Source of the DNA: Candidatus Krumholzibacteriia bacterium
GTDB taxonomy: Bacteria > Krumholzibacteriota > Krumholzibacteriia > Krumholzibacteriales > Krumholzibacteriaceae
Length of the DNA stretch: 64,000 nucleotides
NCBI GenBank assembly: GCA_963836185.1
Contig: CAWIIQ010000003.1
Coordinates: forward strand, 224,001-288,000
Direction: 5' to 3'
Below the pieces are notes generated by a model that ran no database searches, was not told the DNA's origin, and was given only the letters and a program-made list of their open reading frames with translations. Positions within the stretch are counted from its first letter, which is position 1, and the number at the start of each line of letters is the position of its first letter. The position numbers and the translations under genes are program-made. Shown piece after piece: positions 11,673-28,771 of the stretch.

Positions 11673-11709
11673 CGCCGTGCCTGAACAATGTGAACTGGAG
11701 GTATGCAAG

Positions 11710-11979
11710 ATGAAAAAACTACTAGTGATCTGTCTTGCGCTTGTCATTTTTGCTTCGGTGGGATGCGGCAACAAGCCTGACAGCGCCAGGGAATCGTCCG
11801 AGACGGATACCGAAACCGCGAGACTGGTCCATATCTGTGACCCGGTAGACGGAAGCGAGCTAAATCCGGGTATCGATTCGAAGTACATGTACGTCTACAA
11901 GGACACCGAGTACCACTTCAACAGCAAGGACAACTACGAAGCCTTCAAGAAGGACCCCGAGAAGTATGTGTCACAGTGA
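11710..11979 (+). CDS. YHS-domain lipoprotein
   Basis: Lipobox SVGC; DPV..., YKDTEYHFNS..., FKKDPEKY. Confidence 0.75.
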   Translation: MKKLLVICLALVIFASVGCGNKPDSARESSETDTETARLVHICDPVDGSELNPGIDSKYMYVYKDTEYHFNSKDNYEAFKKDPEKYVSQ

Positions 11980-12042
11980 TCGAGGCGGGTGCTTCCATGA
12001 AGTAATTCGTGTTCTGACAAGTCCCTGAATGGAATTCATCCA

Positions 12043-12070
12043 CGGCCCCCTTCGCGGGGGCCGTTTTTTT
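12043..12070 (+). terminator. Rho-independent terminator
   Basis: cggccccc-ttcgc-gggggccg followed by T7. Confidence 0.9.
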
Positions 12071-12250: not shown

Positions 12251-12393
12251 CAATGGCCCGATCGTAGGAGTTTTCCGTGACCGCCGTCCAGGCGGAACAC
12301 GGATCTTGAAATCAGACCTCCATAGACGAGATGTCCGTGCATCACCGCGTGCGAACTCCATTCGGACTGGAGGAAAACAAGGAGGACAGCCAG

Positions 12394-12885
12394 ATGAGAA
12401 GGAGTCTTTCCGTAGCGATCCTTCTTCTCTTCGCAGCCGTCTCCGCAGGCGCCGCCTTTGCCCAGGGCCCCGAGCTCAAGGGTGAGATGGCAGCCGCGAA
12501 GATCGTTGTCGATGAGGAAAAGGGAGAGATCGCTCTGCCCGCCGAGCAGGTCTACCCGAACGATATGGTCGAGTATACGCTGAAGTATACGAACTCCGGC
12601 ACCGCTACGGCGGCCGGTGTCGACCTGATCGGGCCCGTTCCGGTCGGAACGGTCTACATCGAGAAAACAGCAACCGACATCCCCGGACTCAAACCCATGT
12701 ACAGCATCGACCAGGGCAAGACCTGGCATGAAGCGCCGGTAATAGTCGAAGTCGCCCGCAAGGACGGGACGGTCGAGAAGAAGAAGGCCGACCCGGAGTT
12801 GATCACTCATGTCAAGTGGTCGATGGCGGAGAACCTCGATGTCGGGGAAGAGATCATGGTCAGCTACCGCGTCCATGTGAAGTAG
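12394..12885 (+). CDS. Small secreted single, C-terminally incomplete DUF11-like domain protein
   Basis: Signal peptide (AFA-Q), PNDMVEYTLKYTN, YSIDQGKTW, ends VKW..LDVGE..VSYRVHVK. Confidence 0.8.
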   Translation: MRRSLSVAILLLFAAVSAGAAFAQGPELKGEMAAAKIVVDEEKGEIALPAEQVYPNDMVEYTLKYTNSGTATAAGVDLIGPVPVGTVYIEKTATDIPGLKPMYSIDQGKTWHEAPVIVEVARKDGTVEKKKADPELITHVKWSMAENLDVGEEIMVSYRVHVK

Positions 12886-12987: not shown

Positions 12988-15676
12988 ATGACTTTCAGAA
13001 AGTCAGCTGGGCTCCTGGTGCTCCTGGCGATAGCGCTTGTCGTATCGTCGGCTGCCAACGCCCAGACGCCTGCCGGAACATTGATTCAGAACCAGGCTTC
13101 GGCCACGTTCCAGGATCTCTCCGGCAACACTTACACGGCGACCTCTAATCAGGTCACCACGATCGTACTCCCGGTATACGGGGTATCAGTCCTTCCGGAT
13201 GGTACCGTGGCTGCCCCGGGTATGGTCGGAACCTCGATACCCGGACAGACGGTATACTACAGCTACAACCTCACCAACACGGGTAATGACCCTGAAGATT
13301 TCACGATCGTACCTATTATCGACGCGGCCACGACGATGACGCTCGGGCTGGGCGATATAGACATCTACCATGATGTCAATGGTAACGGCGTGCTCGATGG
13401 CGGCGAGCCCGTTATCTCGGCTGGCGGCGTGGCGGGCAATACCGGCCTCGTTGCCGCCGGTACGACGATTCAGCTTCTTGTCGAGTATCAGGTCCCCGCG
13501 CTGGCTGCCGCCGGCGAGGTCGCCTATGTCGGCATGACGGCTACATCGGTCACCGACATCACCCAGGTAGATACGGGAAACATCCACCAGACAGACGTAG
13601 TGAGCGATGCTTCGCTGACCGCGACGATGTCCGGCCTTCCGGCCAGCCTCGATCCCGGCGACATCGCGACCTACACGATCACCGGACAGAATGTCGGTAA
13701 CGACATCGCCAACGGCGTCACCGTAGCTTCGGTAGGCCTGACCGGCGTTCTCGTATATGACATCCTCCCGACCGATCCTTCGACCGGTAACCCGCTGGCT
13801 CTCTCCGGCGCTCCTGCCGGCGCTCCCGCGGGCGGCACGGTACTGTACCTGCCTGCCGGAAGCCCGACAGTCGGTAACCCCGAGACGTGGGCATGGTCGA
13901 CCTCCGCCGCTGCCGGCGACATAGCGGTTGCTTATGTCACCAACGGCGGCCTGACGATCGGCATGAACTACAACTTCACCTATGACGTGACCGTTCCTCT
14001 GACGATGCCTGCCGGTATCATCAACAACTTCGGCGATGTCGCCTACGTGGACAACAACGCCGGCACGGCCGATCCGACGATCGTCACGACAAACAACACG
14101 CAGATCGATGTGAACGTCCTTGCCGACGTCCTCGTCGGTCCGAACGGCGTCCCCGATGCTGGAACGCCTCCTGCGTATAACGACGATTCACAGGCTGTCG
14201 CGAACGCCTACGCGAACGAGACGGTCGACTTTATCAATACTGTAAGGAACGACGGCAACGCCGCGGACGTTATCAATATCGTCCTCGATGCCGGCGCTTC
14301 GACATTCCCTCCGGGATACGGCATCCAGTTCTTCCGTATTGACGGTGTCACTCCTCTGAGCAATACCGGCGCGGACGCGATCCCCGATGTCGGCAACATC
14401 AACCCCGGCGCGACGCAGGACTTCATCGTCCGAGTCACCATACCGGGTAACGCCGTTGCTGGCGGCCCCTACCTGGCCGTAATCAACGCCGTTTCAGAGA
14501 ATGTCCCGGCCGAGCTCAACGTCACCACCGACGAGATCACCGCGGTCAACCCCGCGTCGGTCGATATCGGCAACTATGACGGACTGGTCGGAACCGACAA
14601 CAACCCGCTTAACATCGATACCGATCCGGGCCTGTCGGTCGACTTCGCTCTCGACGTGATCAACACAGGTGGCTCGAGCGACAACTTCGATCTGTCCGCG
14701 ACCATCCCGGCCGCCTGGACAGTTACTTTCTATCTCGATGCCAACGGTAACGGCATTCTCGACAACCCCGAGCTCACCCCGATCGCGAATGTCGGGCCGG
14801 TAGCCGCGGGCGGCGAGGTCAATGTTATCGCGCGCGTCGATGTTCCCGCCGGCGAGGTTCCCGGCGTGAACGCTACGACATTCAGAGCCGCTTCGGCTCT
14901 CAACGCAGGCATCTTCGACGAGATCGCCAACACTGTGACCGTGCTCGGCGCGGCCGCCGTGACGATCACGCCCGACAGAAACGGTACCGGTACCGCTAAC
15001 GGAACGATCCGTTACCAGCATACCGTGACCAACACGGGTAACGTCGACGATACCTTCATGCTCAGCGCGCTCAGCTCGAACGCGTGGAGCTACGCCTTCT
15101 TCGATCTGGCCAACAACCCGATCCCTTCGGTCACCCTTGTTGCCGGCGCCACCCAGGACATTATCGTCCAGGTGTCGATCCCCGGAGGCGTGGCTGTTGG
15201 AACGATCGAGACCGGCACGATCACAGTTACCGGTAACGGTACAGGCGCCACCGATTCGGCTGTCGACGTCACGACGATCGTCGCCGGAAACCTCGTACTC
15301 GCGAAGTTCGTCAATCCTGTGGGCAATCAGCTTCCCGGAACGGAACTGACCTACCGCACGGACTACTCGAACGTGGGTGTGGCGGACCTGACAAGCATAG
15401 TCATCTATGACGCGATCCCTGCCTGGACCCAGTTCAGGGTCGGCTCGGAGTCCGACGGCACACTGGCTCCCGGGATCACAGCGATGACGATTGAGTTCTC
15501 CAGATGACGGCGGCGCGACGTGGGTATACGTGCCTGTCGAGCGGCGGCAGGCGGAGCCCCCGCGGGCTTCGACGCCACTCGTGACCAACGTACGGTGGAC
15601 CCTCACCGGTACGCTGGCCGGCGGCGACAGCACTGTCGACGGCGTCTCCCTCATAGTGAGGATCATCGCGGAGTAG
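12988..15676 (+). CDS. Secreted DUF11/Ig-repeat protein, putative major fimbrial subunit (frameshifts about 15500-15580)
   Basis: Signal peptide (ANA-Q), TPAGTLIQNQA, repeated xxNTGNxxD Ig domains, DxNGNG loops; C-terminus continues EFSDDGGATW...TNVRWTLTG...LIVRIIAE*. Confidence 0.85.
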
Positions 15677-15690
15677 CAGTACGCAAAAAT

Positions 15691-15777
15691 AAGGCGGGAG
15701 GGGCCGCAAGGCCCCTTACGCCTTACAGTTAAATGACGTATTCAGAGGCAGGTCCCCATGGCGGGGCCGCCTCTGAA
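15691..15777 (+). terminator. Two tandem hairpins after the putative major subunit gene
   Basis: aaggcg..aggggcc-gcaa-ggcccct..cgcctt and ttcagaggc...gcctctgaa; no U tract. Confidence 0.6.
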
Positions 15778-15891: not shown

Positions 15892-18800
15892 GTGAAGAGA
15901 AGGAATTACATCACTGATTTTTCCACCGGGTCCACCGGCAGGGGGATACTCCTGTGCGCGCTGGTCCTGGCCGCCATTTTTGCGCTTTCCTCGCCCGCAT
16001 TCTCCCAGATCCCCCCGGCCGGCACGGTAATATCGAGCCGGTCGTCCGCATCGTACGTCGACAACGGCAATCAGCTCACGATCCTCTCCAACGAAACAGC
16101 GTTCAGCGTTCTGCCGATGTTCGGGCCCCTTCTGACGCCTGACGGCACTTCCGCCGCGCCTGCCGCCACACGGACGGCGTTCAGCGGGGAGACGGTCTAC
16201 TACCCGTTCACACTGACCAACACGGGAAACGCCGACGATACGTTCGGATTGGCAACGGTCCTGGCGGCGCCATCCGATTTCGTTCCCTCGGCCACGGCGG
16301 TCTATCTCGATGGAAACGGTGACGGAGACGTCGACCCCGGCGAACAGGAGATCACAGAGGCCGGACCGCTCGCTTTCGGGGAGACGGTGCAGCTCGTCAT
16401 GTCCGCCACCCTTCCTTCCGGCCTGACCGGGGGAGAGATCGCGCACATGGATCTCGAGGCGAGATCGCTCGGCGACACATCGCAGGTCGATCGCGGGAAT
16501 GTCGTACGCGTCACGGCACGCGACGAGGCGAGAGTGGAACTTGCGCTCGAATCGGATGTCTCATCCGTCATGCCCGGCGGATTTGTGACATACACGATGC
16601 GGTACGTAAACACCGGTGAACGGACCGCGACCGGTGTCTCGATCACCAGCATGATCGACACCCTTGGATTTATCGATGGAACAGAATACCTGGCAGGAAG
16701 CGCGTCCGCCGTGCCCGCCGGACTGATCGAATATTTTGACGGCGAGACGTCGGCCTGGATCGATGTCGCCCCGCCGGAGAACAGGGTAAAGGGCGCCCGC
16801 CTGCGCCTCGATACCCTCGCCCCCGGAGAGGCGGGATCCTTCTCACTGACCGTCCGCGTCGACGACGATCATGCCCGCGGCAATATCGTGAACACGGCCA
16901 CGGCCGGATTCACGGGAGGCGACGGGTTGCCCTACCAGCTTCTTTCCAACGAAGTGACGGTCCTCGTCGGCATGATAAGCGAGGTCTGGCTTGGACCGCT
17001 CGGGGATCCGCTCGCGACGCCCGGGTCGGATGACGACAGGGTCGTGATCTCACTCGGCGCCGCGGATTCGGTCTGCGTCTTCAGGCATGAGATCCTCAAC
17101 GCCGGTAATTTCGCCGACACCTTCAGCCTCGTGCTTTCCGACTCGGTGATGATCCCGTCCGGCTGGCAGGTCGAGTTCCTCGGTCCCGGCGACGTGGTCC
17201 TTCCATCCCTTTCGGCGTGGTCCGCGAGGCTCGGTCCGATCGAGATCGGAGGAACCAGGGAAGTCGCGGTAAGGATATCGGCCAGCGCCGAGATACTCCG
17301 CAGCTTCACGGGCCGGGAATTCGCTTTCGATGTCGATGCGAGATCGCTTGTCGACGATGCGGCGCGTGACGAGGTGCGGAACGTGCTCGTCAAGGGGGAC
17401 ATGCCTCTGCTGTCGGTCAAGCAGTCGATCCGCGAGCCGAACGCGATGATCGGCGACGTCGTCAGTTTCATCATCACTGTCGAGAATATGACCGAAGAGA
17501 CGGTCATCGACAGTGTCAAGCTCGTCGAGAACTTCCCCTCAGGGCTGAAATTCTCCAAGGGGTACGAGCAGCCCGTCATCGAGAACAACAAGCTGATATT
17601 CGATCTCGGGCAGCTTCTGCCTGGAGCGAAGAGAGACATCGTCATCAGGGCGACAGTCGCGGCGGGGCAGGAGAAAGACGAGCTCGTAACGACCGCCTAC
17701 GTCTACGGCTCGACGCAGTACGGCGAGGCCGCTGAAGACGGTCCTGCCTACGCGTCCGTCAGGCTCTACGAGGGAGAGTTCACCAGGCGCGGGATCGTGA
17801 TGGGAAGCGTCTTCATCGACCGTGACGGAGACGGGATTCGCGGTCGGGAAGAAGAGGGTGTCCGCGGGGCGGCCGTCTTCTACGAGAAGGGCACATACGC
17901 AGTAACTGACTCGAGCGGGCTCTGGTCGATACCGGGCGTCGAGGAGGGAAGGCACGTCTTCCGTGTCGATCCCAAGTCGCTGCCCGATTCGCTTGTGCCC
18001 GGTCCGGCTGGACATTTCGGAATGGGTATCGCGGGGCAGTATCTGATCGATCTCGCCCCGTCGGGCAACCGCCGTGTTGATTTCCCTCTGCAGGTGACCG
18101 AGGTCGCTTCGGACGGGGACGCTTTCGCCGCCATTGAAAGCGACAGCGCGGCGGTTACCCGACAGGGCTCCGTCGGTACCGAGACCGCTGCGGCATCAAC
18201 ATCACCGGAGAGCAACGGCGCGAGCGATGACGCGGTGTCCGGGCCGGCGGGGCCGGAGAGTTCAGCCGATACGTCAGGTACGTATGATGCCCTTAACCTT
18301 CCGGGAACACTCTTCGCCGCGGGAAGCTCCGTGATGGAGGAGATCCCGCTGCGCGAGGTGGCGGCCCTGAGTCTCTGGGTGCGCGAGCATCCCGGCTGGA
18401 AGATTGAGATCGCGGGACACTCGGACAGCACGCCGATCAGGACGGCGGATTATCCGTCCAACTTCGAGCTTTCACTCGCCAGGGCGCGGAGCGTATACCA
18501 GCTCCTGCGGATGAACGGGATCCCTGAGGGCGTGATGGACTACACCGGATACGGCGCGAGGTTCCCCATCGCGAGCAACGACACGGCCGATGGAAGGGCG
18601 AAGAACAGGCGAGTCGAGATACGCGCCCTGCCGCCTGAGGGTTACGCGGGAGTCGATCCCGACATTCCTGCCGCGCTCGCGATGCCCGACACGACGGCGC
18701 CGAAGGAGTTCCAGCTCGCAGACGACGCAGGCCTCTGCGCCGAGATCGTCAAGCCGGCCGAGGGAACGATCTTCACTGAGAGGGACGGGATCGACATCGA

Positions 18801-21730
18801 AGTCGTCGCTCCTCTCGTCTCTACGGTGGAGCTCTACGTTAACAATATCCCTGTCGGCAGGGAGAAGATCGGGCAGAAGCAGATCGACATCGGCGAAGGC
18901 ACGCTCGGATTCATATTCTACGGTGTCAAGATCTCTCCGGGACTGAACAATATCCTCGTCGTCTGCCGATCACAGGGTGAGAAGAATGTCTGCGTCCGCC
19001 ACGTATATCTCGCCGGCAAACCCTCCCTGGTCGTTGCCGAGCACAGGGATGTAGAGGTGCCGGCGGACGGCAGATCGAAACCCGGGCTCGTGTTCCTCGT
19101 CAGCGACGAGCACGGCCTGCCCGCCAGGGACGGACTGTTCCTCACCGTGTCGGGCCCCGGCGACCTGATCGACAAGCTCGACGTCAATCCTCAGGTAAGG
19201 GGCGTACAGGTAGCCACGAAAGACGGCCGCGTCTCGGTCGATCTGCCGCCCTCCGATTATTCGCGCAGGGAGAAGATAGCCGTTACGCTTGAGGATCTCA
19301 CCGCCGAGAGCCGCCTCGAGTATGTCTCGCCGATGCGCGACTGGTTCCTCTTCGGATTCGGCGAGGGGGACGTCGGATACAGCAGCCTGACGGGGACCGG
19401 TTCTACACACAGGACATACGAGCGGTATCCCGACGGTTTCTATGCCGAGGGCAAGCTCGCCTTTTACGGCCAGGGCGAAGTAAGCACGGGCCATCTCCTG
19501 ACGATGGCGATCGATACGAGGCCGATAGTCGAGGATAAGCTCCTTGACCGGATCGAACCGGAAAAATACTACCCGATATACGGCGACGCCAGTGAACTGA
19601 GATTCAACTCGTACTCGAAATATGGTACCTACGCGAGACTCGAGCACCGCAGCTACAACGCGATGATCGGGGACTACAAGACAGAGTTCGGCACGATGGA
19701 GTTCACCAGATACGACAGGACCTTCTCCGGATTCAGGGGATGGGGGCGTCGCGGCCGGTTCGATGTCGCCGGGTTCATGTCTTACAGCGACCAGATCACC
19801 GTCCAGGACGAACTGCGGGCGAACGGGACTAGCGGATTCTACTTCCTCCACAGGTATCCGCTTCTCGAGAACAGCGAGAAGATCAGGATAGAGGTCCGTG
19901 ACAGGTACCAGCCGGAGAAGATCGTCCGCGTCGACTATTACAGCATCAACAAGGATTACGACATCAATTACCTGGACGGCTCGATACTGTTCAAAAAGCC
20001 GATCCTCGCCTTCGACGAGAACTTCAACCCGAGGCATATCGTCGTGACATACGAGTGCCGCTCGGCCGATGACAACAATGTCATCGCCGGTATCCGGCCG
20101 ACCATCGAACTGGCCGACTCGCTGATGATGGGAGTCACGGCGGTCATCCAGGACGAGGGCGAACACAATTACTCGCTTGTCGGCGTCGATCTTGCCGGGC
20201 ACCTGTACAAGGATCTGTTCATCGAGAGCGAATACGCGCACAGCGAGAAGTTCATCGTCGGAAGCGGAGACGCCTTCAGGTTCAAGCTTATGGGACGGCA
20301 CGACCGGATGCTTCGCTGGAGCGCCTACTACCGTGATATCGACGAGAGCTTCTTCAATCCCTCATTCTCCGGAGGAAAGACAGAGCTGGGCAGCAGGAAG
20401 ATCGGCGGCGGACCTCGACTGGAGGATCGGACGCGGATGGTCGCTGATCTCGAACGGATTCGGACACAGGTACGCACAGCGAAACGAGAAGAAAAGTTAC
20501 ATCGACGTAAAAGGAAACTATCGCTCCGGCGCGCTCGATGGATCCTTCGGCCTGGCGCACGCGACGTTCAGCGATTCGAGGGACGGCTCCTCCGCTTCAG
20601 GGCTTCTCGTCGCGGCAGGAGGGTACGGCAGCGAGAATACGAAGGCCGAACTGCAGCTCGACAAGAACGTCACCGGCGATGAAGTGCCCGATTATCCCGA
20701 CCGGATACAGGCGAAGCTGACACAGAAGATATGGAGATGGCTCAACGGTGTCCTCTCATACGAATACAGGTCGGGTAGCCGCTCCGGCTCGAGGCATCTT
20801 ACTCAGCTCGGTATCGAGTCGAGCATAACAGAGAATCTCAGCGCCTACTCACGCTACCGGATGGAAGGCGCGATGAGCGGTGAGCGCTCGCAGGCGATGA
20901 TCGGGATGAAGAACAGGTTCAGGCTCTCCCCCGGGCTGACATCGACCCTCTCGGTCGAGAAGCTCGCTACGGTAAGCGGGACTGATCTCGAAGACTTCAC
21001 GGCGTTTGTGACAGAGTGGCTCTTTACGCCGCCGGGTAAGGATTACAAGTTAAGCGGCGGGTACGAGATCAGACTCGACAGGCAGAGGACGAAGCATCTC
21101 GTAGGATTCGCGGCACTCAAACGCCTCAGCGAGACCTGGGCGGGTCTCATCAAGGTCGATGCCTGGCTGTCCGATGAAAAAGAGGGGATGAACCAGTCGA
21201 AGAGCTCGGGAAGGCTCGGCTTCTCGTACAGGCCGGCATACAAGCCACTGACTGTTCTTTCGATGATAAAGGGTGTTTATGAGAAGAACAGCCCCGCTCA
21301 TCCGTTCGGGGTAGACAAGGCCCTTACCGTGATGACCGAGGCGAACTATCACCTCAACGACAGGTGGGAGATCGAGGGCAAGGTCGTCGGCCGGTGGGTC
21401 GAGAACACCTTCAGGCTGCTTACGGTCAGCTCATCTTCGTACATGTACCAGGCCCAGCTGATCAGGATGTTCGGCAAGGCCTGGGACGTAAGCGTCGCCG
21501 GGCGCGTCGTGCAGCAGATAGAGACGGGCACCCTGAGATACGGCGGCGGGATCCAGGCCGGCAGGATGATCCGCGAGAATGTCTGGGTCGGCGCCGGGTA
21601 CGATTTCGGCGGTCACAGGGACGAAGACACCGAACTGAACGAATTCACGCAGAACGGGTTCCATATAGGCGTCAAACTGAAATTCGACGAGAAGCTGCTC
21701 GGCTATTTCAACGGCAGCTCGGGAGATTGA
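15892..21730 (+). CDS. About 1945-aa DUF11 + SdrD-B-like + OmpA + outer-membrane beta-barrel protein (frameshift about 20410)
   Basis: Signal peptide; pilin-like N-terminus; GSVFIDRDGDG..GE.GV SdrD-B motif; OmpA GHSD...NFELSLARA...NRRVEI; ORF 20177..21730 supplies amphipathic strands ending GVKLKFDE. Confidence 0.85.
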
Positions 21731-21759: not shown

Positions 21760-24660
21760 ATGATGAAGAGAAGTATCAAAAGTAAGACATTCAGAACGGC
21801 AGCACTCTTTGCCGTCCTTGTCATATCGGCAGCTGGAAGTGCCGGCTCTGGCGAGACAGTGATCGAAGGCGGGTTCGAGGGTGGATCGTTCGGTGCGGGC
21901 TGGGTGCATGGCGCGGCAAGGCTCAACGGGAATGAGAACGCCTTATGGGCCGACCATGATGTCGTTCTCGACCTTCCGTACACGGGAACCTGGTCTGCGC
22001 TGCTCGGCTACAAATACACAGCGGTCGCGAAGGACCGCTATGGATACATGTACCAGGAAGTCACGATCCCCGCGGACGCCTCCAGCGCAGTGTTCACCTT
22101 CCGTTACAGGCAGCAGGGATTCGATGGGCGCGCAAACGATCCTTTCGTGGCGGCAGTACGCGACCTGGCGGGCAACGTCCTCGCTACGATCGTCGATGTC
22201 GCCTTCGACGATCAGAGCAGCCACTACAAGGACAGCGGATGGGTCGATGTCACCTACGACATGAGCGCGTTCGCAGGCCAGACGGTACGTCTCGATTTTC
22301 GCCAGCACAACCTCCAGGACAACAGGTTCGAGACGTGGGTCTTCGTCGATGACGTCTCGTGTATATACAGGAAACATGTGGACCTTGCCGTCGACGGAAA
22401 CGGCGACGACGAATTCGGGGCCCCCGGAACAGGATCCGGGGGAATATCTGTTTCCAGCGGCGTGGCGGGTGGGACGGTTACCTACCTCATAGATATCGAG
22501 AACGAAGGTCTCGATATCGACTCCTACACAGTCTCCGCCTCACCCCCCGCCGGCTGGAGCGCCGTAATAAGATACGGCGGGGCCGACTATACCTCTCCAT
22601 GGACCACTTCGGCTGTCGCGCCGGGAACGACGATCTCGGCCGAGGTCATTTTGACTATATCAGCTGGTGCACCGGCAGGCAGCTATTCATCGATAGTCGA
22701 TGCCGTTTCGGTGTCCGATGGAACGAGATACGACAGCGTCACGCTCGGCACCACTATCACTTTAGTCCCGTTCGTGGCCGACCTCGTCATCGACGGTGAC
22801 GGACTGGGCACGATCGATCCCGCCGGAGGAGGCGGATCGTCGTCGGGAAGTGCCTATCCCGGAGCCTTTGTCGACTACGCTATCGAGCTTGTGAACGGCA
22901 GCAGCCAGCAGGACGATTTCACGATCAGCTTCGATTTCGATCCGGGAATAAGCGCAGTAATTATAGACGGAGCCCTGACCCATACGGCTTCGTTCAGTTC
23001 CGGGACGGTCGATTCCGGCGACTCGCGGACATATACGCTTCGCGTGACGGCCGATCCGACCTTTGCAGGAGGGGATTATCTCTCACACGTCTACGCCGCA
23101 TCCTCCGGCGATCCCTCCTCCGTGGACGGCGTCACGGCGACACTGACGGTCATCGCTCCCGTGCTCGACCTGGTCATCGACGGTAACGGAGACGGGATAT
23201 ACGATCCTTCCGGCAACGGCTTCGGTGGTGCGTACACCGTCGACGGCCTTCGTGGCACGACCGTTTATTTTTCGATCGCAGTGCAGAACGAGGGGGGAGT
23301 AGCGGATTCCTACACATTTACCTGGGACAGGCCTTCCGGCAACTGGTCCGCCGTGATCAACGACGGCACAACGGACCACGCTTTCCCGTGGACCTCTCCA
23401 GCCTTCGCTCCGGGTGAGGAGCGGACGTACACGCTCGCCGTCTCTATACCGAATAACGCGGCTTTCAATACCTGGGTATCGATCCTCGATGCAGTATCGG
23501 TCAGCGACGGCAGGATCGCGGAGAGTGTCTCGGCCGTCATCATGGTAAGCGACAAGATCGGGGTAGATGTCATCATCGACGGTAATGGTGACGGGGTTTA
23601 CGGTGGCCAGGGGACGGGAGCGGGCGGGTTGTCCTCCATTATGGCGGCGCCCGGCGACACGGTGACATTCGCGATAGTGGTCGAGAACGAGGGCGGAGTG
23701 GACAGCCACGACATCCAGTGGAACACTCCGGCAGGATGGTCGGTCCTTCTCGATGGGCAAGTCTCCCCGGTAGCCTCGGCGCCGGCGGGAGCCTACACCC
23801 TGCAGGTGATAGTGCCGCTGATGAGCCCGGTCGGGACCTTCGACATAATCCTCGACGCCATAAAGAGCAACAAGAACTTCTATGTCGACAGCGCGACCGG
23901 GCGGATCACCGTAACGGCCTCGCGACTCGTCGACGGTGTGATAGACGGGGCCGGCGACGACATCTTCGGCTCGGCGGGCCTCGGTGACGGCGGAACGTCC
24001 ACGCGCGGGACGGTGGCTGGAGTGGCAGTCGCGTTCATCGTCGAGATCCAGAACCAGGGGACGTTCGATGAGAGCTATACGGTAACGTGGAGCGAGCCGG
24101 CGGGCTGGACCGGGATCCTGGATGGATCGGTGCAGCCTTTCTCGACCGGTGTGATTCCCTCCGGAGGATCCGTGTCATACATCTTCGGGGCGACTGTGCC
24201 ACTGAGCGAGGTGCCTGGAGATTTTGATTATATCATCGATATAGTCTCAATCGACGATCCTCTGAACACGGAGAGCCTCACGGCACGTGTGACGGTTTAT
24301 CCTCCGCCGACGGTCGACCTGGTCAAGGCTGTCGACCTGGCCGCTGCCCAGCCGGGCGAGGTGGTCACCTATACACTTACATACTCGAACCCGAGCGCGG
24401 CGCCCATCATCGAGATCGAGATCGTCGATCCGGTACCGCCCGAGATGGAGCTCGTCCTTGACGCGTACGGCGCGGGGAGCGATATCTCCTGGACGACAGG
24501 GGCGGGCACAGTCTACCTTACGGCCGACCCTGCCGACGCAGATGAGGCCCTCTTCGACCCTGGCACGGGCGTCCTGCAGGTCATCCTCTCGCGGCAGGCA
24601 CCGTACATGCTCTCGACGGGTGAATCAGGCGTCATCGAGTTCCAGGTTAGAGTCAGGTAG
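21760..24660 (+). CDS. Secreted adhesin-like protein: N-terminal beta-sandwich, 5 Ig repeats, terminal DUF11
   Basis: Signal peptide; EGGFE..GW...WVFVDDV (CBM-like); repeats DLxxDGxGD; VDLVKAVD..PGEVVTYTLTYSN..IVDPVP..EFQVRVR*. Confidence 0.8.
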   Translation: MMKRSIKSKTFRTAALFAVLVISAAGSAGSGETVIEGGFEGGSFGAGWVHGAARLNGNENALWADHDVVLDLPYTGTWSALLGYKYTAVAKDRYGYMYQEVTIPADASSAVFTFRYRQQGFDGRANDPFVAAVRDLAGNVLATIVDVAFDDQSSHYKDSGWVDVTYDMSAFAGQTVRLDFRQHNLQDNRFETWVFVDDVSCIYRKHVDLAVDGNGDDEFGAPGTGSGGISVSSGVAGGTVTYLIDIENEGLDIDSYTVSASPPAGWSAVIRYGGADYTSPWTTSAVAPGTTISAEVILTISAGAPAGSYSSIVDAVSVSDGTRYDSVTLGTTITLVPFVADLVIDGDGLGTIDPAGGGGSSSGSAYPGAFVDYAIELVNGSSQQDDFTISFDFDPGISAVIIDGALTHTASFSSGTVDSGDSRTYTLRVTADPTFAGGDYLSHVYAASSGDPSSVDGVTATLTVIAPVLDLVIDGNGDGIYDPSGNGFGGAYTVDGLRGTTVYFSIAVQNEGGVADSYTFTWDRPSGNWSAVINDGTTDHAFPWTSPAFAPGEERTYTLAVSIPNNAAFNTWVSILDAVSVSDGRIAESVSAVIMVSDKIGVDVIIDGNGDGVYGGQGTGAGGLSSIMAAPGDTVTFAIVVENEGGVDSHDIQWNTPAGWSVLLDGQVSPVASAPAGAYTLQVIVPLMSPVGTFDIILDAIKSNKNFYVDSATGRITVTASRLVDGVIDGAGDDIFGSAGLGDGGTSTRGTVAGVAVAFIVEIQNQGTFDESYTVTWSEPAGWTGILDGSVQPFSTGVIPSGGSVSYIFGATVPLSEVPGDFDYIIDIVSIDDPLNTESLTARVTVYPPPTVDLVKAVDLAAAQPGEVVTYTLTYSNPSAAPIIEIEIVDPVPPEMELVLDAYGAGSDISWTTGAGTVYLTADPADADEALFDPGTGVLQVILSRQAPYMLSTGESGVIEFQVRVR
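22381..24300 (+). repeat. Five approximately 130-aa repeats starting D(L/V/G)xxDGxG
   Basis: Starts near 22381, 22780, 23167, 23566, 23932. Confidence 0.75.
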
Positions 24661-24819
24661 TCGGCCGCAGCCGACCGGGCTCTTCATTGCCGACACCCGT
24701 TTTCTGTGCTATAATCCCTATGTAACACCACGGCAGCTTATCCTTTTATTCGGCCCGCGCCAGTGGTCCCTCGACCCTTTACGGCCGGATTACAGTTTCT
24801 GTCATTGTCTGGAGGGGTG

Positions 24820-27800
24820 ATGATGAGACGCGCCCTCGTTCTATTTATTCTCCTGGCTATAATTCCGTCCACAGCACCGGCCCAGTCTCCTGAAATCGGG
24901 CGTATCGCGCTCTACGCCGATTCATTCAGAACATCCAGTGAAGTCGACCTGCCCGAGGCCTACACCTCGTTCGATCTCTACATCTTCTGCCAGCCGAGCG
25001 AAAACGGCATGTCATGCGCCGAGTTCGCCCTGGCCTCTACGACAGGATCGATGGTCGTTGCCGGGGGTGACTGGCACGATGGGTTGTCCGTGACGCTCGG
25101 GGATCTGATGACCGGAGTGAGTGCGTGTTTCGAGGAGTGCCAGACCGACTGGGTCTGTTTAGCCAGGGTGACGATGCTGAACTCTGATACGGACCCGGCT
25201 GTGATAGAGGTAGTGAGACATCCGGAGGCAGGTTACTACCAGTTCAGCAGCTGCCTTCCCGACCGTCCGATCGAACCGGTCTTCTTCGGGCCGGGCCTCT
25301 GTGTCAACTCTGACTGCACGCCTGATACAGATCCTCCCGTACCTGTAAGCATAGCTGTCGAGGACGATCTTCACATGACCCTGTACTTCGATGAAAAGGT
25401 ATTCGAGCCCGACGCTCTGGATCCGGGCAGCTACATCGTCTATTCGACAGAGGGCACACCGGATTCCATCCCTGTCATCTATGCGCTGCTGCGGCCCGAG
25501 GAGGACAGGGTGTGGCTGGTGCTCGGCGAGCATCTCACCGCGGACCCTTACAGGCTGGAGATAAGGGATCTCAGGGATGTCACGGGCAACCCCTCCCTGC
25601 CCGGAACCGGGATAGCGTTCGGCGGCGAGGATACTACTCCTCCCGATCTTCTGTACGCATACGCTCCGGACGATTTCAATGCGATCCTGGTCTTTACCGA
25701 AACGCTCGATCTAGTCTCGGCTGTTGATATCTCGAACTATACGACCGGTTGCGATGGTTGCCCCTCTGTCCCTCAGCCTGTCTCCGTGTCGATGAGGTCC
25801 GACGGCAGAAGTGTGTCACTGGCCCTCGACCGGCAGATGGACCAGGAGTGGATATACAACGTCACGGCCGGGGGTATCTTCGACATCTCGGGTAATGAGA
25901 TGGCTGCGCCTGTAACGGTCTTTTTCAAGGCGCCCGATACGACCCCGCCATCTATCGGCGAGGTATCGATCTCGTCGGATACCACGTTGAGGATACTCTG
26001 GAGCGAGACGCTCGATCCCGCATCGGCGGTCGATCTGGAGAACTACTCCTTTTTCAGGGACGGGCCGCCGGCCGAGCCGATGAATCTTGTATCAGCCGAA
26101 CTTTTCGGCGGCATCCATGTCAGTCTCGATTTCGAGCCCGCGATAGAGATCGATTGCGGGTATACACTGTTTGTAAGCGGGGTGACGGACAGCTCGATGA
26201 ATGTGATGCTTCCCGACACCTTATATGTAACACCTCTGGATACGATCCCTCCGGTCCTGCTCGGCGCTGAATGCATGGGGCTCCGGGACGTCGACCTGAC
26301 ATTCGACGAACCGGTCGATCCATCGGTGGCGGGAGCGACCGGATTTTTCCAGGTCTATCCGGCGGGAGATCCGGGGACTCTCCTTGATATAGACGGGATC
26401 TCTCTCTATCTCGGTGATACGGTAACCCGCCTTCATCTGATCGATGACCTCGCACACGGGATGAGTTACACGGCCCGCGTCATCAGCATCCGTGACCCGG
26501 CCGGGAACTCACTGCCCTCTCAGCAGCGCGATTTTACCTGTTACGACATATATTCCCCCGAAGTCCTCGAGATATTCCTGTCCGACCTCACGCATGTAAA
26601 TATCCGGTTCGATGAGATGGTCGATGGCGCGGCGGAACAGACGGCCAGCTATATCCTCCGTGAAGCGGCCGATTCCACTGCCGTGGTCGATCTGGCCTCT
26701 GCCGCCCTTTTCGATGGAGCGACGCGGGCAGTGCTGATAACGGCGGCGCCCCTCGGTATTGGCGAGATGTATATCCTGAAGATGAGCGGGATAGGGGACA
26801 TGATCGGGAATATGGTCGACCCGGACACTTCTTGGACCTTTATCGCTGAAGATACGGTCGATCCGGTCCTTCTCGGCCTTACCGTGACCAGCGACAGCAT
26901 CATCCATCTGGAATTCAACGAGCCCCTCGACCCGGCGGCGGCTGAGGATATCGCGAAATATGCCGTCGTGGAAACGGGCGACACATCAGTCAGGCTGCCG
27001 CTCCAGTCGGCATCGCTCGATCCGGCCGGCACTACGGCAGATCTCGAGATCGACGGGCGCGCAGCGATCGGGACGACGTACGCCGTCTGGATCGCCGGTG
27101 TGACGGATGTAGCGGGAAACGCATTCTACGGGGCCTCCGGCGACTTCCAATTCATCGACGACATCCCTCCGCGCCTGCTCTCCGTTGCCGGGGTGACGAC
27201 GAGGGATGTCATCGTCTTTTTCGATGAAGCGGTCACGGACGCCACGGCCGGTGACGAGCTCAACTACAGGCTGTATCCGACGGGCGACCCGGCATCAGAG
27301 GTCGGCATATTCCAGGCCGACAGACTCGCGGACCAGGTGACCGTCAAGCTCATGCTTTTCGAGGACCTCGCTCAGGGTACGGACTACACCCTCGATGTCG
27401 CCGATATCATGGACCTTGCCGGACATGCCATCGAGCCGGTTTCGATCGAGTTTCATTTCCTCGACCTCTTTCCGCCGGGGATCGTGGATGTGGACCTGAT
27501 CGACCCTTCGAGGCTGTCGATAGAGTTCGACGAACCTGTCGATTCGGTGACGGCAAGTGATATCAGGCAACTACGATGTATATCTGAGTTCTGATCCATC
27601 TGAGCTGATATCTGTGAATTCGATAGACTGGATGACCGGCGAGGTCCGGCTGAACCTCGCTACCGAGCCCCAGCCGAACGTTGACTACACGGTAAGGATC
27701 GATGGGGTCGAGGACCGGTTCGGCAATGCCTGCAGTGGACTCTACGGAAGCTTCAGGCGTGATGTCCTCGCGCCGTCGACAAAGATGTACCTCTTCGCCG

Positions 27801-28771
27801 ATGAATACAGGAGCACACACGATGTAGATGCCGATGTTCTTTACCAGCCTTTCAGTTATTACGTCTGGCTCGAGCCCGGCGGCAACGGAGTCTTCAGCGT
27901 CGATTACTCCCTGAGCGGGCCGGAGACGTATGTCCCGATAGGTATAGAGATGAATCCTGCCTGTGTGTCCGGGGTCCTTGGGGACCCCTGGATCGGGCAC
28001 ACCGTCGAGCTGTCGGTCTGTGAGCACGACTGGCTCTGGATCGCCCGGATCGACTGTATCTGTATCGATCCTGGAGAGCAGGAGGTAGTATGGATCGTGC
28101 CGCATCCCGGCGAGGGAGCGGTACAGGTCGCTTCATGCCTGGCAGGAAATCCGGTGGAGCAGGTGGTGGCGACATACCCGCTGCTCATAAACGCTGTTTA
28201 CATAGGCACGATGCTGGAGAGCTGGGACGTATCGCTGAGTGGCGGCGGTATCGAGCTGACCTGGTCGATCCTCCAGGCGGCGGGTTCGCCGGGGTTCGAG
28301 GTCTCACGAAGTTCCGAAGGCGCTGATATGTGGCAGAACCTCGACAGCGAGCTGATCCGCGGCGACGGCCTGAACTATTCGATGCTCGACATCGATGTCG
28401 AGTTCGGCCTGTCGTACAGGTACCGGGTCGAATGTGTCGAGGATGACGGGCGAAAGATCCTTTTCGAAACAGGTCCGGTCGCGACCCCGGCCATGCCGCT
28501 CACGCTCAGGCAGAACAATCCCAACCCGTTCAATCCTTCGACCCGCATCGAATTCCTCCTGCCGCGTCCCGGCCACGTCCGCATCGAGGTGTTCGATGTC
28601 AACGGGAGGCTGATCAGGGTCCTCGCCGACGGGCACTTAGCGAGCGGCGGGCATTCGGTCGACTGGGACGGACGGGACCGCACAGGCACGATGGTATCGT
28701 CGGGAGTATATTTCTACAGGCTGACGGCGGGGAAAGAGAGCCTGTCGCGGAAAATGGTGCTTCTGCGGTGA
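24820..28771 (+). CDS. Secreted protein with 8 Big_5/SbsA-like Ig repeats and FlgD/T9SS-type tail (frameshift about 27565)
   Basis: Signal peptide; eight DxxPP...F(D/N)E...NY...D.(A/S)GN repeats; QNNPNPFNP...KMVLLR. Confidence 0.85.

Follow-up and report, generated by a model that had tools for sequence, protein, structure and literature searches.

What does a protein do that begins as a paralogue of a pilin and ends in a very large beta-barrel? The question is raised by positions 15,892–21,730 of a window of 64,000 nucleotides (the whole stretch of DNA analyzed here; contig CAWIIQ010000003.1, positions 224,001–288,000 of the forward strand, assembly GCA_963836185.1, Candidatus Krumholzibacteriia bacterium), where the initial annotation had proposed a giant anchor acting as usher and terminator in one chain and holding its fibre non-covalently. 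The reading that we favour, with roughly even confidence, is that this giant protein serves a fibre made of split DUF11/CLIPPER domains both as its export pore and as its base anchor; the fibre would grow at its base and take up the giant's stalk as its last donor. The coordinates of all features are collected in Table 1.

Composition and integrity of the giant gene

Alignment of the giant (residues 24–463) with the major pilin encoded directly upstream (residues 10–484) gave 139 identical positions out of 476 (29%; E 6e-39) and covered the motifs from which paralogy had originally been proposed (WLGPLGDP versus LVGPNGVP), bearing out that proposal. The pilin-like stretch is confined to these residues, and the fourth and fifth domains of the giant (DUF11 and SdrD_B-like) lie outside it. 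Of the other domains predicted at the outset, the OmpA-like domain (residues 808–906) was above the Pfam cut-off, as was DUF11 (best stretch, residues 507–608), and the barrel of about 800 amino acids (aa) was recovered; the SdrD_B match (residues 640–691) remained under the cut-off (E 0.004), although this region formed a folded beta domain in an AlphaFold2 model. That model, which covered the part of the giant preceding the barrel, comprised a hairpin, five beta-sandwich domains, a linker and the OmpA-like domain, with a mean predicted local distance difference test score (pLDDT) of 85.9. A fold search with the stalk found no solved relative and returned only generic immunoglobulin (Ig) chains at template-modelling (TM) scores below 0.2. 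The two Ig domains ahead of the barrel are likely periplasmic. Both the giant (16006) and the pilin (13063) are predicted to start with Gln after signal cleavage, and pyroglutamate capping of the donor end is possible; such capping is common in bacteria of the Fibrobacteres–Chlorobi–Bacteroidetes group.

In the window, the gene appears as two overlapping open reading frames (ORFs) on the plus strand (15892–20682, 1596 aa; 20177–21730, 517 aa), which had been taken for one gene broken near 20410. Comparison with nine related loci, mostly labelled Candidatus Krumholzibacteriota or uncultured bacterium, agreed with this view. The frame was open across the junction in all nine, seven of them complete (1945–1984 aa) and two cut by contig ends, and the window carried one surplus base at 20407–20410 relative to seven of the eight loci aligned there, the eighth alignment stopping short of the site. 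Moreover, 74 of 76 close database homologues aligned through the site, and the two halves were 87.8% and 86.6% identical to the intact protein of one related locus (L001) and contained no stops. Similar breaks occur elsewhere in the assembly. The pilin ORF carries four +1 insertions (at ~15502–15505, 15537–15541, 15549 and 15577–15578), and these, like the insertion in a downstream Big_5 gene, are private to this assembly. The SprA gene of the genome (contig C2, 331131–335548; L090 and L091) is split into frames of 1275 and 751 aa, whereas SprA is whole (2163–2196 aa) in three genomes of the same genus. Because the five insertions in the operon and the breaks in the Big_5 and SprA genes are all private indels, they are best explained as assembly noise, and 15892–21730 is likely to be one gene of ~1945 aa interrupted by an assembly error.

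If the breaks were real, the operon would be a decaying pseudogene cluster in this strain, with the system standing in relatives. Five insertions across two operon genes would fit this, and the attribution to assembly error rests on comparison with relatives. We nevertheless consider decay very unlikely, given that every insertion is a private +1, that the same type of break is found in the unrelated Big_5 gene (~27563) and in the divided SprA gene, and that the two halves of the giant remain 87–88% identical to the intact orthologue. A programmed frameshift was also considered and rejected, since none of the other homologues examined is broken at that position (P0078 diverges ~40 residues later and P0079 is partial).

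A domain split between chains and the donor of the giant

In CLIPPER/DUF11 domains, an Asp catalyzes the formation of a Lys–Asn isopeptide bond, the residues being Lys715, Asp748 and Asn806 in PDB 9IFR (PMC12617251). The last domain of the pilin ends before the strand that would bear the Asn, but it has Lys773 and Asp808, each present in all 120 homologues; an Asn is found instead at the N-terminus of the pilin (Asn35, 13090–13092), in 118 of 118 aligned rows. The Lys/Asp/Asn triad is thus available, split across chains, for pilin–pilin and pilin–tip joints, both of which we predict to be locked by a covalent isopeptide bond. The giant has the donor end only and lacks a C-terminal open acceptor.

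We modelled the pilin acceptor of locus L005 together with residues 39–212 of the L001 giant. The complex reached an ipSAE of 0.91 in three of three runs, with contact agreement of at least 99% and a partner pLDDT of 90–91, whereas the highest-scoring of three controls stood at 0.01; the calibration mark for this score, roughly valid for the alignments used here, was reached by 116 of 157 solved pairs and by 2 of 215 mismatched ones. The modelled interface consisted of giant residues 39–76, with pilin Lys773 contacting residues 51, 66 and 67, beside the strand position of Ser49. The giant's donor hairpin is accordingly modelled, and predicted, as the source of the two strands missing from the last domain of the pilin, and the complex supports the chain order tip, pilins, giant.

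As the initial annotation had noted, Ser49 of the giant (AGC, 16036–16038) is in register with Asn35 of the pilin. To see how widely this substitution extends, we drew on 211 long barrel-bearing proteins. A donor could be identified in 70 of the 74 close members and in 81 of the 137 distant ones. Asn is absent from all 70 close giants, which carry Ser (65), Gly (3) or Ala (2) at this position, whereas 76 of the 81 distant ones have it. In a FastTree barrel tree of 94 rows (all 71 distant rows and 23 of 68 close ones), the 23 close rows formed one branch (support 100), and four more losses of Asn were scattered. Because the loss is confined largely to one clade whose pilins keep their Asn, non-covalent anchoring appears to be derived and lineage-specific. 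Without isopeptide chemistry at Ser49, the base link in this clade would be non-covalent and exchangeable, and it is likely that the giant of this lineage holds its fibre in this manner. The proposal of non-covalent holding thus stands for this clade but does not extend to the system as a whole. A donor without a lock can hold: the N35A variant of BsaA stayed oligomeric until heated (PMC11580942).

Two further observations concern the same chemistry. The giant's own complete DUF11 domain (17398–17775) has Gln and Glu at the Lys and Asp positions (consensus LSxxQS and VxExLxPG in A1/A7) and, as far as these residues indicate, is likely to form no internal isopeptide bond in this clade. In distant operons, several pilin-like subunits have Thr, Leu or His in place of the donor Asn (L014:21790, L019:22622, L025:17671, L025:19395, L027:4252 and L030:3930), which suggests that non-covalent joints may be programmed within other fibres.

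The small secreted protein has Gly at the catalytic Asp position (LIGPVP versus IYDAIP) and a counterpart in most full loci; it is likely a cap or chaperone for donor hairpins. The tip protein reaches 3,000 aa in relatives. The whole set (small acceptor, pilins with donor and acceptor, acceptor-only tip, donor-only anchor and barrel) recurs in 29 loci. A hairpin followed the pilin stop in all eight sequences folded (z −1.5 to −4.4), with differing stem sequences, and likely stabilizes the pilin mRNA relative to that of the giant. Its conservation agrees with a pilin made in large amounts and a base made in small ones, for which papA and papH offer a parallel. A promoter scan found sites no more numerous than in shuffled sequences. 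Sequence searches of the PDB with the pilin found no solved relative, the calmodulin matches being noise from DxDxDG loops.

Size, relatives and gene context of the barrel

The L001 barrel (802 residues, 75 sequences) was modelled with a pLDDT of 88.6 and a predicted TM score of 0.79. Reading the model's secondary-structure list for alternating short turns and long loops, we counted 38 strands: seven, a small inserted beta domain (barrel residues 158–250), and then 31, both termini facing the side of the short turns. Under assumed shear numbers, the standard formula yields a backbone ring 68–70 Å across, compared with 43 Å for 24 strands, the number in the barrel of chaperone–usher ushers. A ring of this size would be wide enough for Ig domains, in agreement with what an export role had been expected to demand. 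Porins aligned to the barrel's first and last strands together, which fits one closed barrel.

The barrel matched no Pfam family. The usher family PF00577 was absent from either half and from the intact barrel, and gave no match in the genome (92.5% complete), whereas the Escherichia coli control was detected. Foldseek returned SlpA, MtrB, LptD and SprA as top structures (TM 0.2–0.25), and neither PapC nor FimD, which had been named for comparison, was among the best 50 ranks. With VIA-align, SlpA scored Z 16.7 (266 residues aligned, root-mean-square deviation (rmsd) 4.1) and SprA 16.1 (551, rmsd 11.4), followed by FimD at 14.4 (331, rmsd 7.6) and PapC at 14.1 (289, rmsd 7.8), with porins of equal Z; the SprA alignment was the longest of any PDB chain to the barrel. 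The proposed joining of pore and base subunit in one chain is supported, but the term usher in the sense of the PapC/FimD family is not, given the absence of PF00577, 38 rather than 24 strands, and homology to SprA. SprA itself, with 36 strands, has been named the largest known single-chain barrel (10.64898/2026.03.07.710327). One barrel homologue (P0280, 1190 aa, Almyronema) is annotated as a TonB-dependent receptor by its source, likely in error.

The top rank of SlpA, together with the intact OmpA-like domain, would suit a different function, because SlpA/OmpM proteins tie the outer membrane to the cell wall: the barrel and OmpA-like domain would be an envelope staple, and the DUF11 chains would polymerize in the periplasm. 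We find this hardly likely at all, considering that OmpA is missing from 62 of the 211 long homologues and lies behind the barrel in 9, that the SlpA match spans only 266 residues at a TM of ~0.25, and that the tip carries adhesin-like domains and is very long in relatives.

The link to SprA was first suggested by a motif and was afterwards tested by HHalign. Against 20 full SprA frames of the same class, the barrel gave a probability of 97.4% (E 1.5e-11) over 143 columns, covering barrel residues 166–324 (the insert and strands 8–12); the reversed control gave 2.3%. Significance was reached only with ~400 rows, a 59-row alignment having given 8.7%. Outside this stretch the signal faded: barrel residues 1–170 aligned with SprA 281–377 in the right order at a non-significant 0.2%, and windows past residue 345 gave at most 8.5%, so that the C-terminal two thirds had no significant match. 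Single-profile searches were weak (best E 2e-4 in 35 SprA loci), SprA was not among the matches of PDB sequence searches, and the giant did not match TIGR04189. By profile comparison, the barrel is distantly related to SprA over a limited stretch. Four ORFs of other genomes (1,143–1,395 aa; family 1,100–1,470 aa) were matched weakly both by the SprA model (604–674) and by the barrel N-terminal profile (101–230), at G004:C5:163500-163916, G028:C1:33072-33524, G040:C8:172697-173164 and G013:C2:146256-146642; this family possibly bridges SprA and the barrel and is perhaps another undescribed large barrel.

The true SprA of the genome is the gene on contig C2, and all 41 genomes examined from the class have SprA. 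A type 9 secretion system (T9SS) pore is thus at hand through which pilins and tip could leave, to click together outside, while the barrel displayed only the stalk of its own or the adjacent anchor, as an oversized autotransporter would. The constant presence of an SdrD_B-like domain ahead of the barrel (211 of 211 long homologues) would also fit. Such a division of labour seems improbable to us: no T9SS sorting domain (TIGR04183/PF18962) was matched in the small protein, the pilin, the giant or the tip, whereas the nearby gene at 27557–28771 does match; barrels that carry a single passenger are far smaller than this one; and the homologues with a named source belong to Massilia and a cyanobacterium, groups not known to have a T9SS.

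Searching with the barrel found 2,685 clusters (50% identity; E no higher than 0.001). Among 80 metagenome loci gathered with a stand-alone-barrel profile, 33 had a DUF11–SdrD anchor gene (OmpA-bearing in 23) directly upstream of a stand-alone barrel gene, and in 16 the gene upstream of a stand-alone barrel was pilin-like; the rest were alone without an upstream module (3), fused (18), cut (8) or other (2). In total, the barrel has a gene of its own at 52 of the 80 loci. OmpA lies ahead of the barrel in 140 of the 211 long homologues. Since the barrel and a donor-bearing anchor are separate neighbours elsewhere, the giant is best seen as a fusion of pore and anchor. The idea that the linker threads the pore was discarded as a general rule, because gaps from SdrD to Ig are only 5–16 residues in distant fused forms.

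Proposed growth of the fibre and comparison with known systems

We propose that the subunits would be exported through the barrel and that the fibre would lie on the surface. Subunits would cross the inner membrane by Sec, and the small acceptor-only protein would cap their donor hairpins in the periplasm. The tip would leave first; pilins would then join below it at the pore, an autocatalytic Lys–Asn bond locking each of them in place. Finally, the stalk of the giant would act as the last donor and hold the fibre, tied to peptidoglycan by the OmpA-like domain. With Ser49 the last link would be exchangeable, so that an incoming Asn-bearing pilin could displace the tethered donor, or the cell could shed the fibre.

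Several points weigh against this scheme. The 38 strands come from a list rather than a trace of the coordinates, as does the pore width from a formula, and a covariation check of barrel closure gave 3.9 standard deviations for the best pair of strand 1 and last strand, compared with 3.7 for a control strand pair. The complex was modelled from orthologues of two genomes, and strand complementation gives a high score with any close donor. The profile used to gather the 80 loci biases their ratio of split to fused forms. A donor on a 20-nm tether amounts to a local concentration of ~50 µM, and in type 1 pili an equimolar terminator shut down all ushers (PMC10673952); an irreversible terminator tethered 1:1 should obstruct the very pore to which it belongs. 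The Asn kept by most distant giants makes such a terminator hard to square with long fibres. As to the terminator role first proposed, a pilin paralogue with a donor and without an acceptor is indeed present, but it is fused 1:1 to the barrel instead of being a separate, scarce subunit.

A reversible Ser donor would relieve the self-block in this clade but not in Asn-bearing fusions, so that growth in the opposite order keeps a minor share of our confidence. The stalk would then serve as a primer that threads out first, pilins would be added distally, and the acceptor-only adhesin would cap the fibre. This order avoids the block by a tethered donor and fits the distant giants, and a 68-Å ring could have room for a resident stalk as well as a chain in transit. 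Subunits would have to travel to a remote tip outside the cell, however, and a cap protein and barrel Ig domains located in the periplasm would fit assembly at the pore better; in split systems, the amount of the separate anchor could set fibre length. Both directions give an identical final polarity.

Base growth with the giant as last donor invites comparison with chaperone–usher pili (FimD/PapC; FimI/PapH; PMC10673952), which share an acceptor-only tip, a rod with donor and acceptor, a donor-only base, an outer-membrane barrel, and a terminator that is a paralogue of the major pilin and encoded right after it. The present system differs in lacking sequence homology, in its 38 strands, in a two-strand donor hairpin on a CLIPPER fold, in a predicted covalent lock, in a helper that is an acceptor and not a strand donor, in an anchor fused to the pore and in an OmpA wall tether. 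No PapD-type chaperone or chaperone–usher pilin was found in the operon, whose four genes gave DUF11-type matches only. With the SprA/Sov T9SS translocon (PDB 6H3I, TIGR04189) the barrel shares a very large single chain and the ~143-column homologous stretch; SprA has 2,100–2,400 aa, whereas here a barrel of ~800 aa lacks its large insertions, counts 38 strands rather than 36, and serves clients without T9SS sorting domains. Type Va/Ve autotransporters have barrels of 12 strands, unlike the 38 here, where moreover the barrel is mostly a separate gene. The Sulfolobus thread reportedly also polymerizes by exchange and locking, with an archaeal fold, in a single-membrane cell and without an outer-membrane pore.

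Exchange-and-lock polymerization is also shared with Clostridium perfringens BsaA (PMC11580942), which has a TasA-like fold and belongs to a single-membrane cell without an outer-membrane pore. DUF11 adhesins anchored by OmpA, such as Acinetobacter silvestris B9T28_05395 (PDB 9IFR), share the DUF11 stalk, the Lys–Asp–Asn chemistry and the OmpA-like anchor; in those adhesins the bond lies within one domain of one chain (PMC12617251), whereas in the present system two chains each supply part of the domain and there is a dedicated barrel. Predicted barrels of 38 and 40 strands, families 003 and 002 of Solan et al. 2021 (PMC8346858), can be compared by strand number only, since the text consulted gives neither accessions nor function or operon. 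Three other systems differ from this one in the parts compared and were set aside: CryoSeek TLP-1, haloarchaeal tafi and the Litorilinea DUF11 hook.

We found no description of the operon in open-access PMC and bioRxiv and no solved member in PDB sequence searches, and we predict a new class of surface-fibre system. At the level of sequence, what the locus adds is a clade-wide loss of the anchor lock, direct paralogy to the local pilin and measured homology to SprA. A bolder statement, which we advance tentatively and rate well short of even, is that a widespread, undescribed Gram-negative class of pilus and secretion pore exists, in which an 800-residue, 38-strand relative of SprA exports self-crosslinking split-domain subunits and bears a terminator of its own; in this lineage, the change from Asn to Ser would make that terminator a placeholder that can be displaced, ratcheting growth or letting the fibre go. 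If right, at least 2,685 clusters at 50% identity would contain a pilus pathway that shares no homologous component with chaperone–usher, type IV, type V or sortase pili; a function would be assigned to a barrel that exceeds every solved single-chain barrel in size; and a compact SprA relative would allow tests of how the type 9 pore arose. Fused and split forms, and Asn and Ser variants, occur naturally and offer ready experiments on the control of fibre length and release, and a split, self-locking CLIPPER pair would be a candidate for a SpyTag-like protein ligation tool.

Table 1. Positions in the window of the giant's parts and of the other operon features
Feature	Position	Strand	Remark
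Small secreted acceptor-only DUF11-like protein	12331..12885	+	likely start ~12394
Major pilin, N-terminal donor hairpin and C-terminal incomplete DUF11 acceptor	12988..15676	+	true end after correction; 894 aa in intact orthologue P0002
RNA stem-loop after pilin stop	15690..15725	+	GC-rich, without U-tract; z −4.4
Giant: GTG start and signal peptide	15892..16005	+	cleavage AFS/Q, by eye
Giant: donor beta-hairpin, residues 39–76	16006..16119	+	Ser49 in isopeptide Asn place
Giant: three Ig/DUF11-like stalk domains	16120..17397	+	paralogous to pilin domains 1–3
Giant: DUF11 and SdrD_B-like module	17398..18096	+	Pfam, structure model
Giant: disordered linker	18097..18282	+	pLDDT <50 over ~58 residues
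Giant: OmpA-like peptidoglycan-binding domain	18283..18630	+	Pfam, structure model
Giant: two Ig domains (Big_1/GH2-C-terminal-like)	18724..19320	+	also N-terminal in stand-alone barrels
Giant: predicted 38-strand outer-membrane beta-barrel	19321..21730	+	interrupted by +1 insertion 20407–20410
SprA-homologous stretch	19816..20292	+	small beta domain inserted between strands 7/8, plus strands 8–12
Likely tip adhesin, acceptor with Lys and Asp, without donor hairpin	21760..24660	+	N-terminal MAM/choice-of-anchor-J-like, weak matches

Downstream of the tip gene, 24763–28771 encodes a Big_5-repeat protein (~1,320–1,340 aa, with a FlgD/T9SS-type C-terminal domain in relatives), with a +1 insertion near 27563. 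Because this gene is absent at this position in two related loci (L002 and L009), it likely lies outside the fibre operon. Just upstream of the operon, a short lipoprotein-like ORF with a YHS domain (11677–11979) is followed by a terminator-like hairpin (12042–12064).

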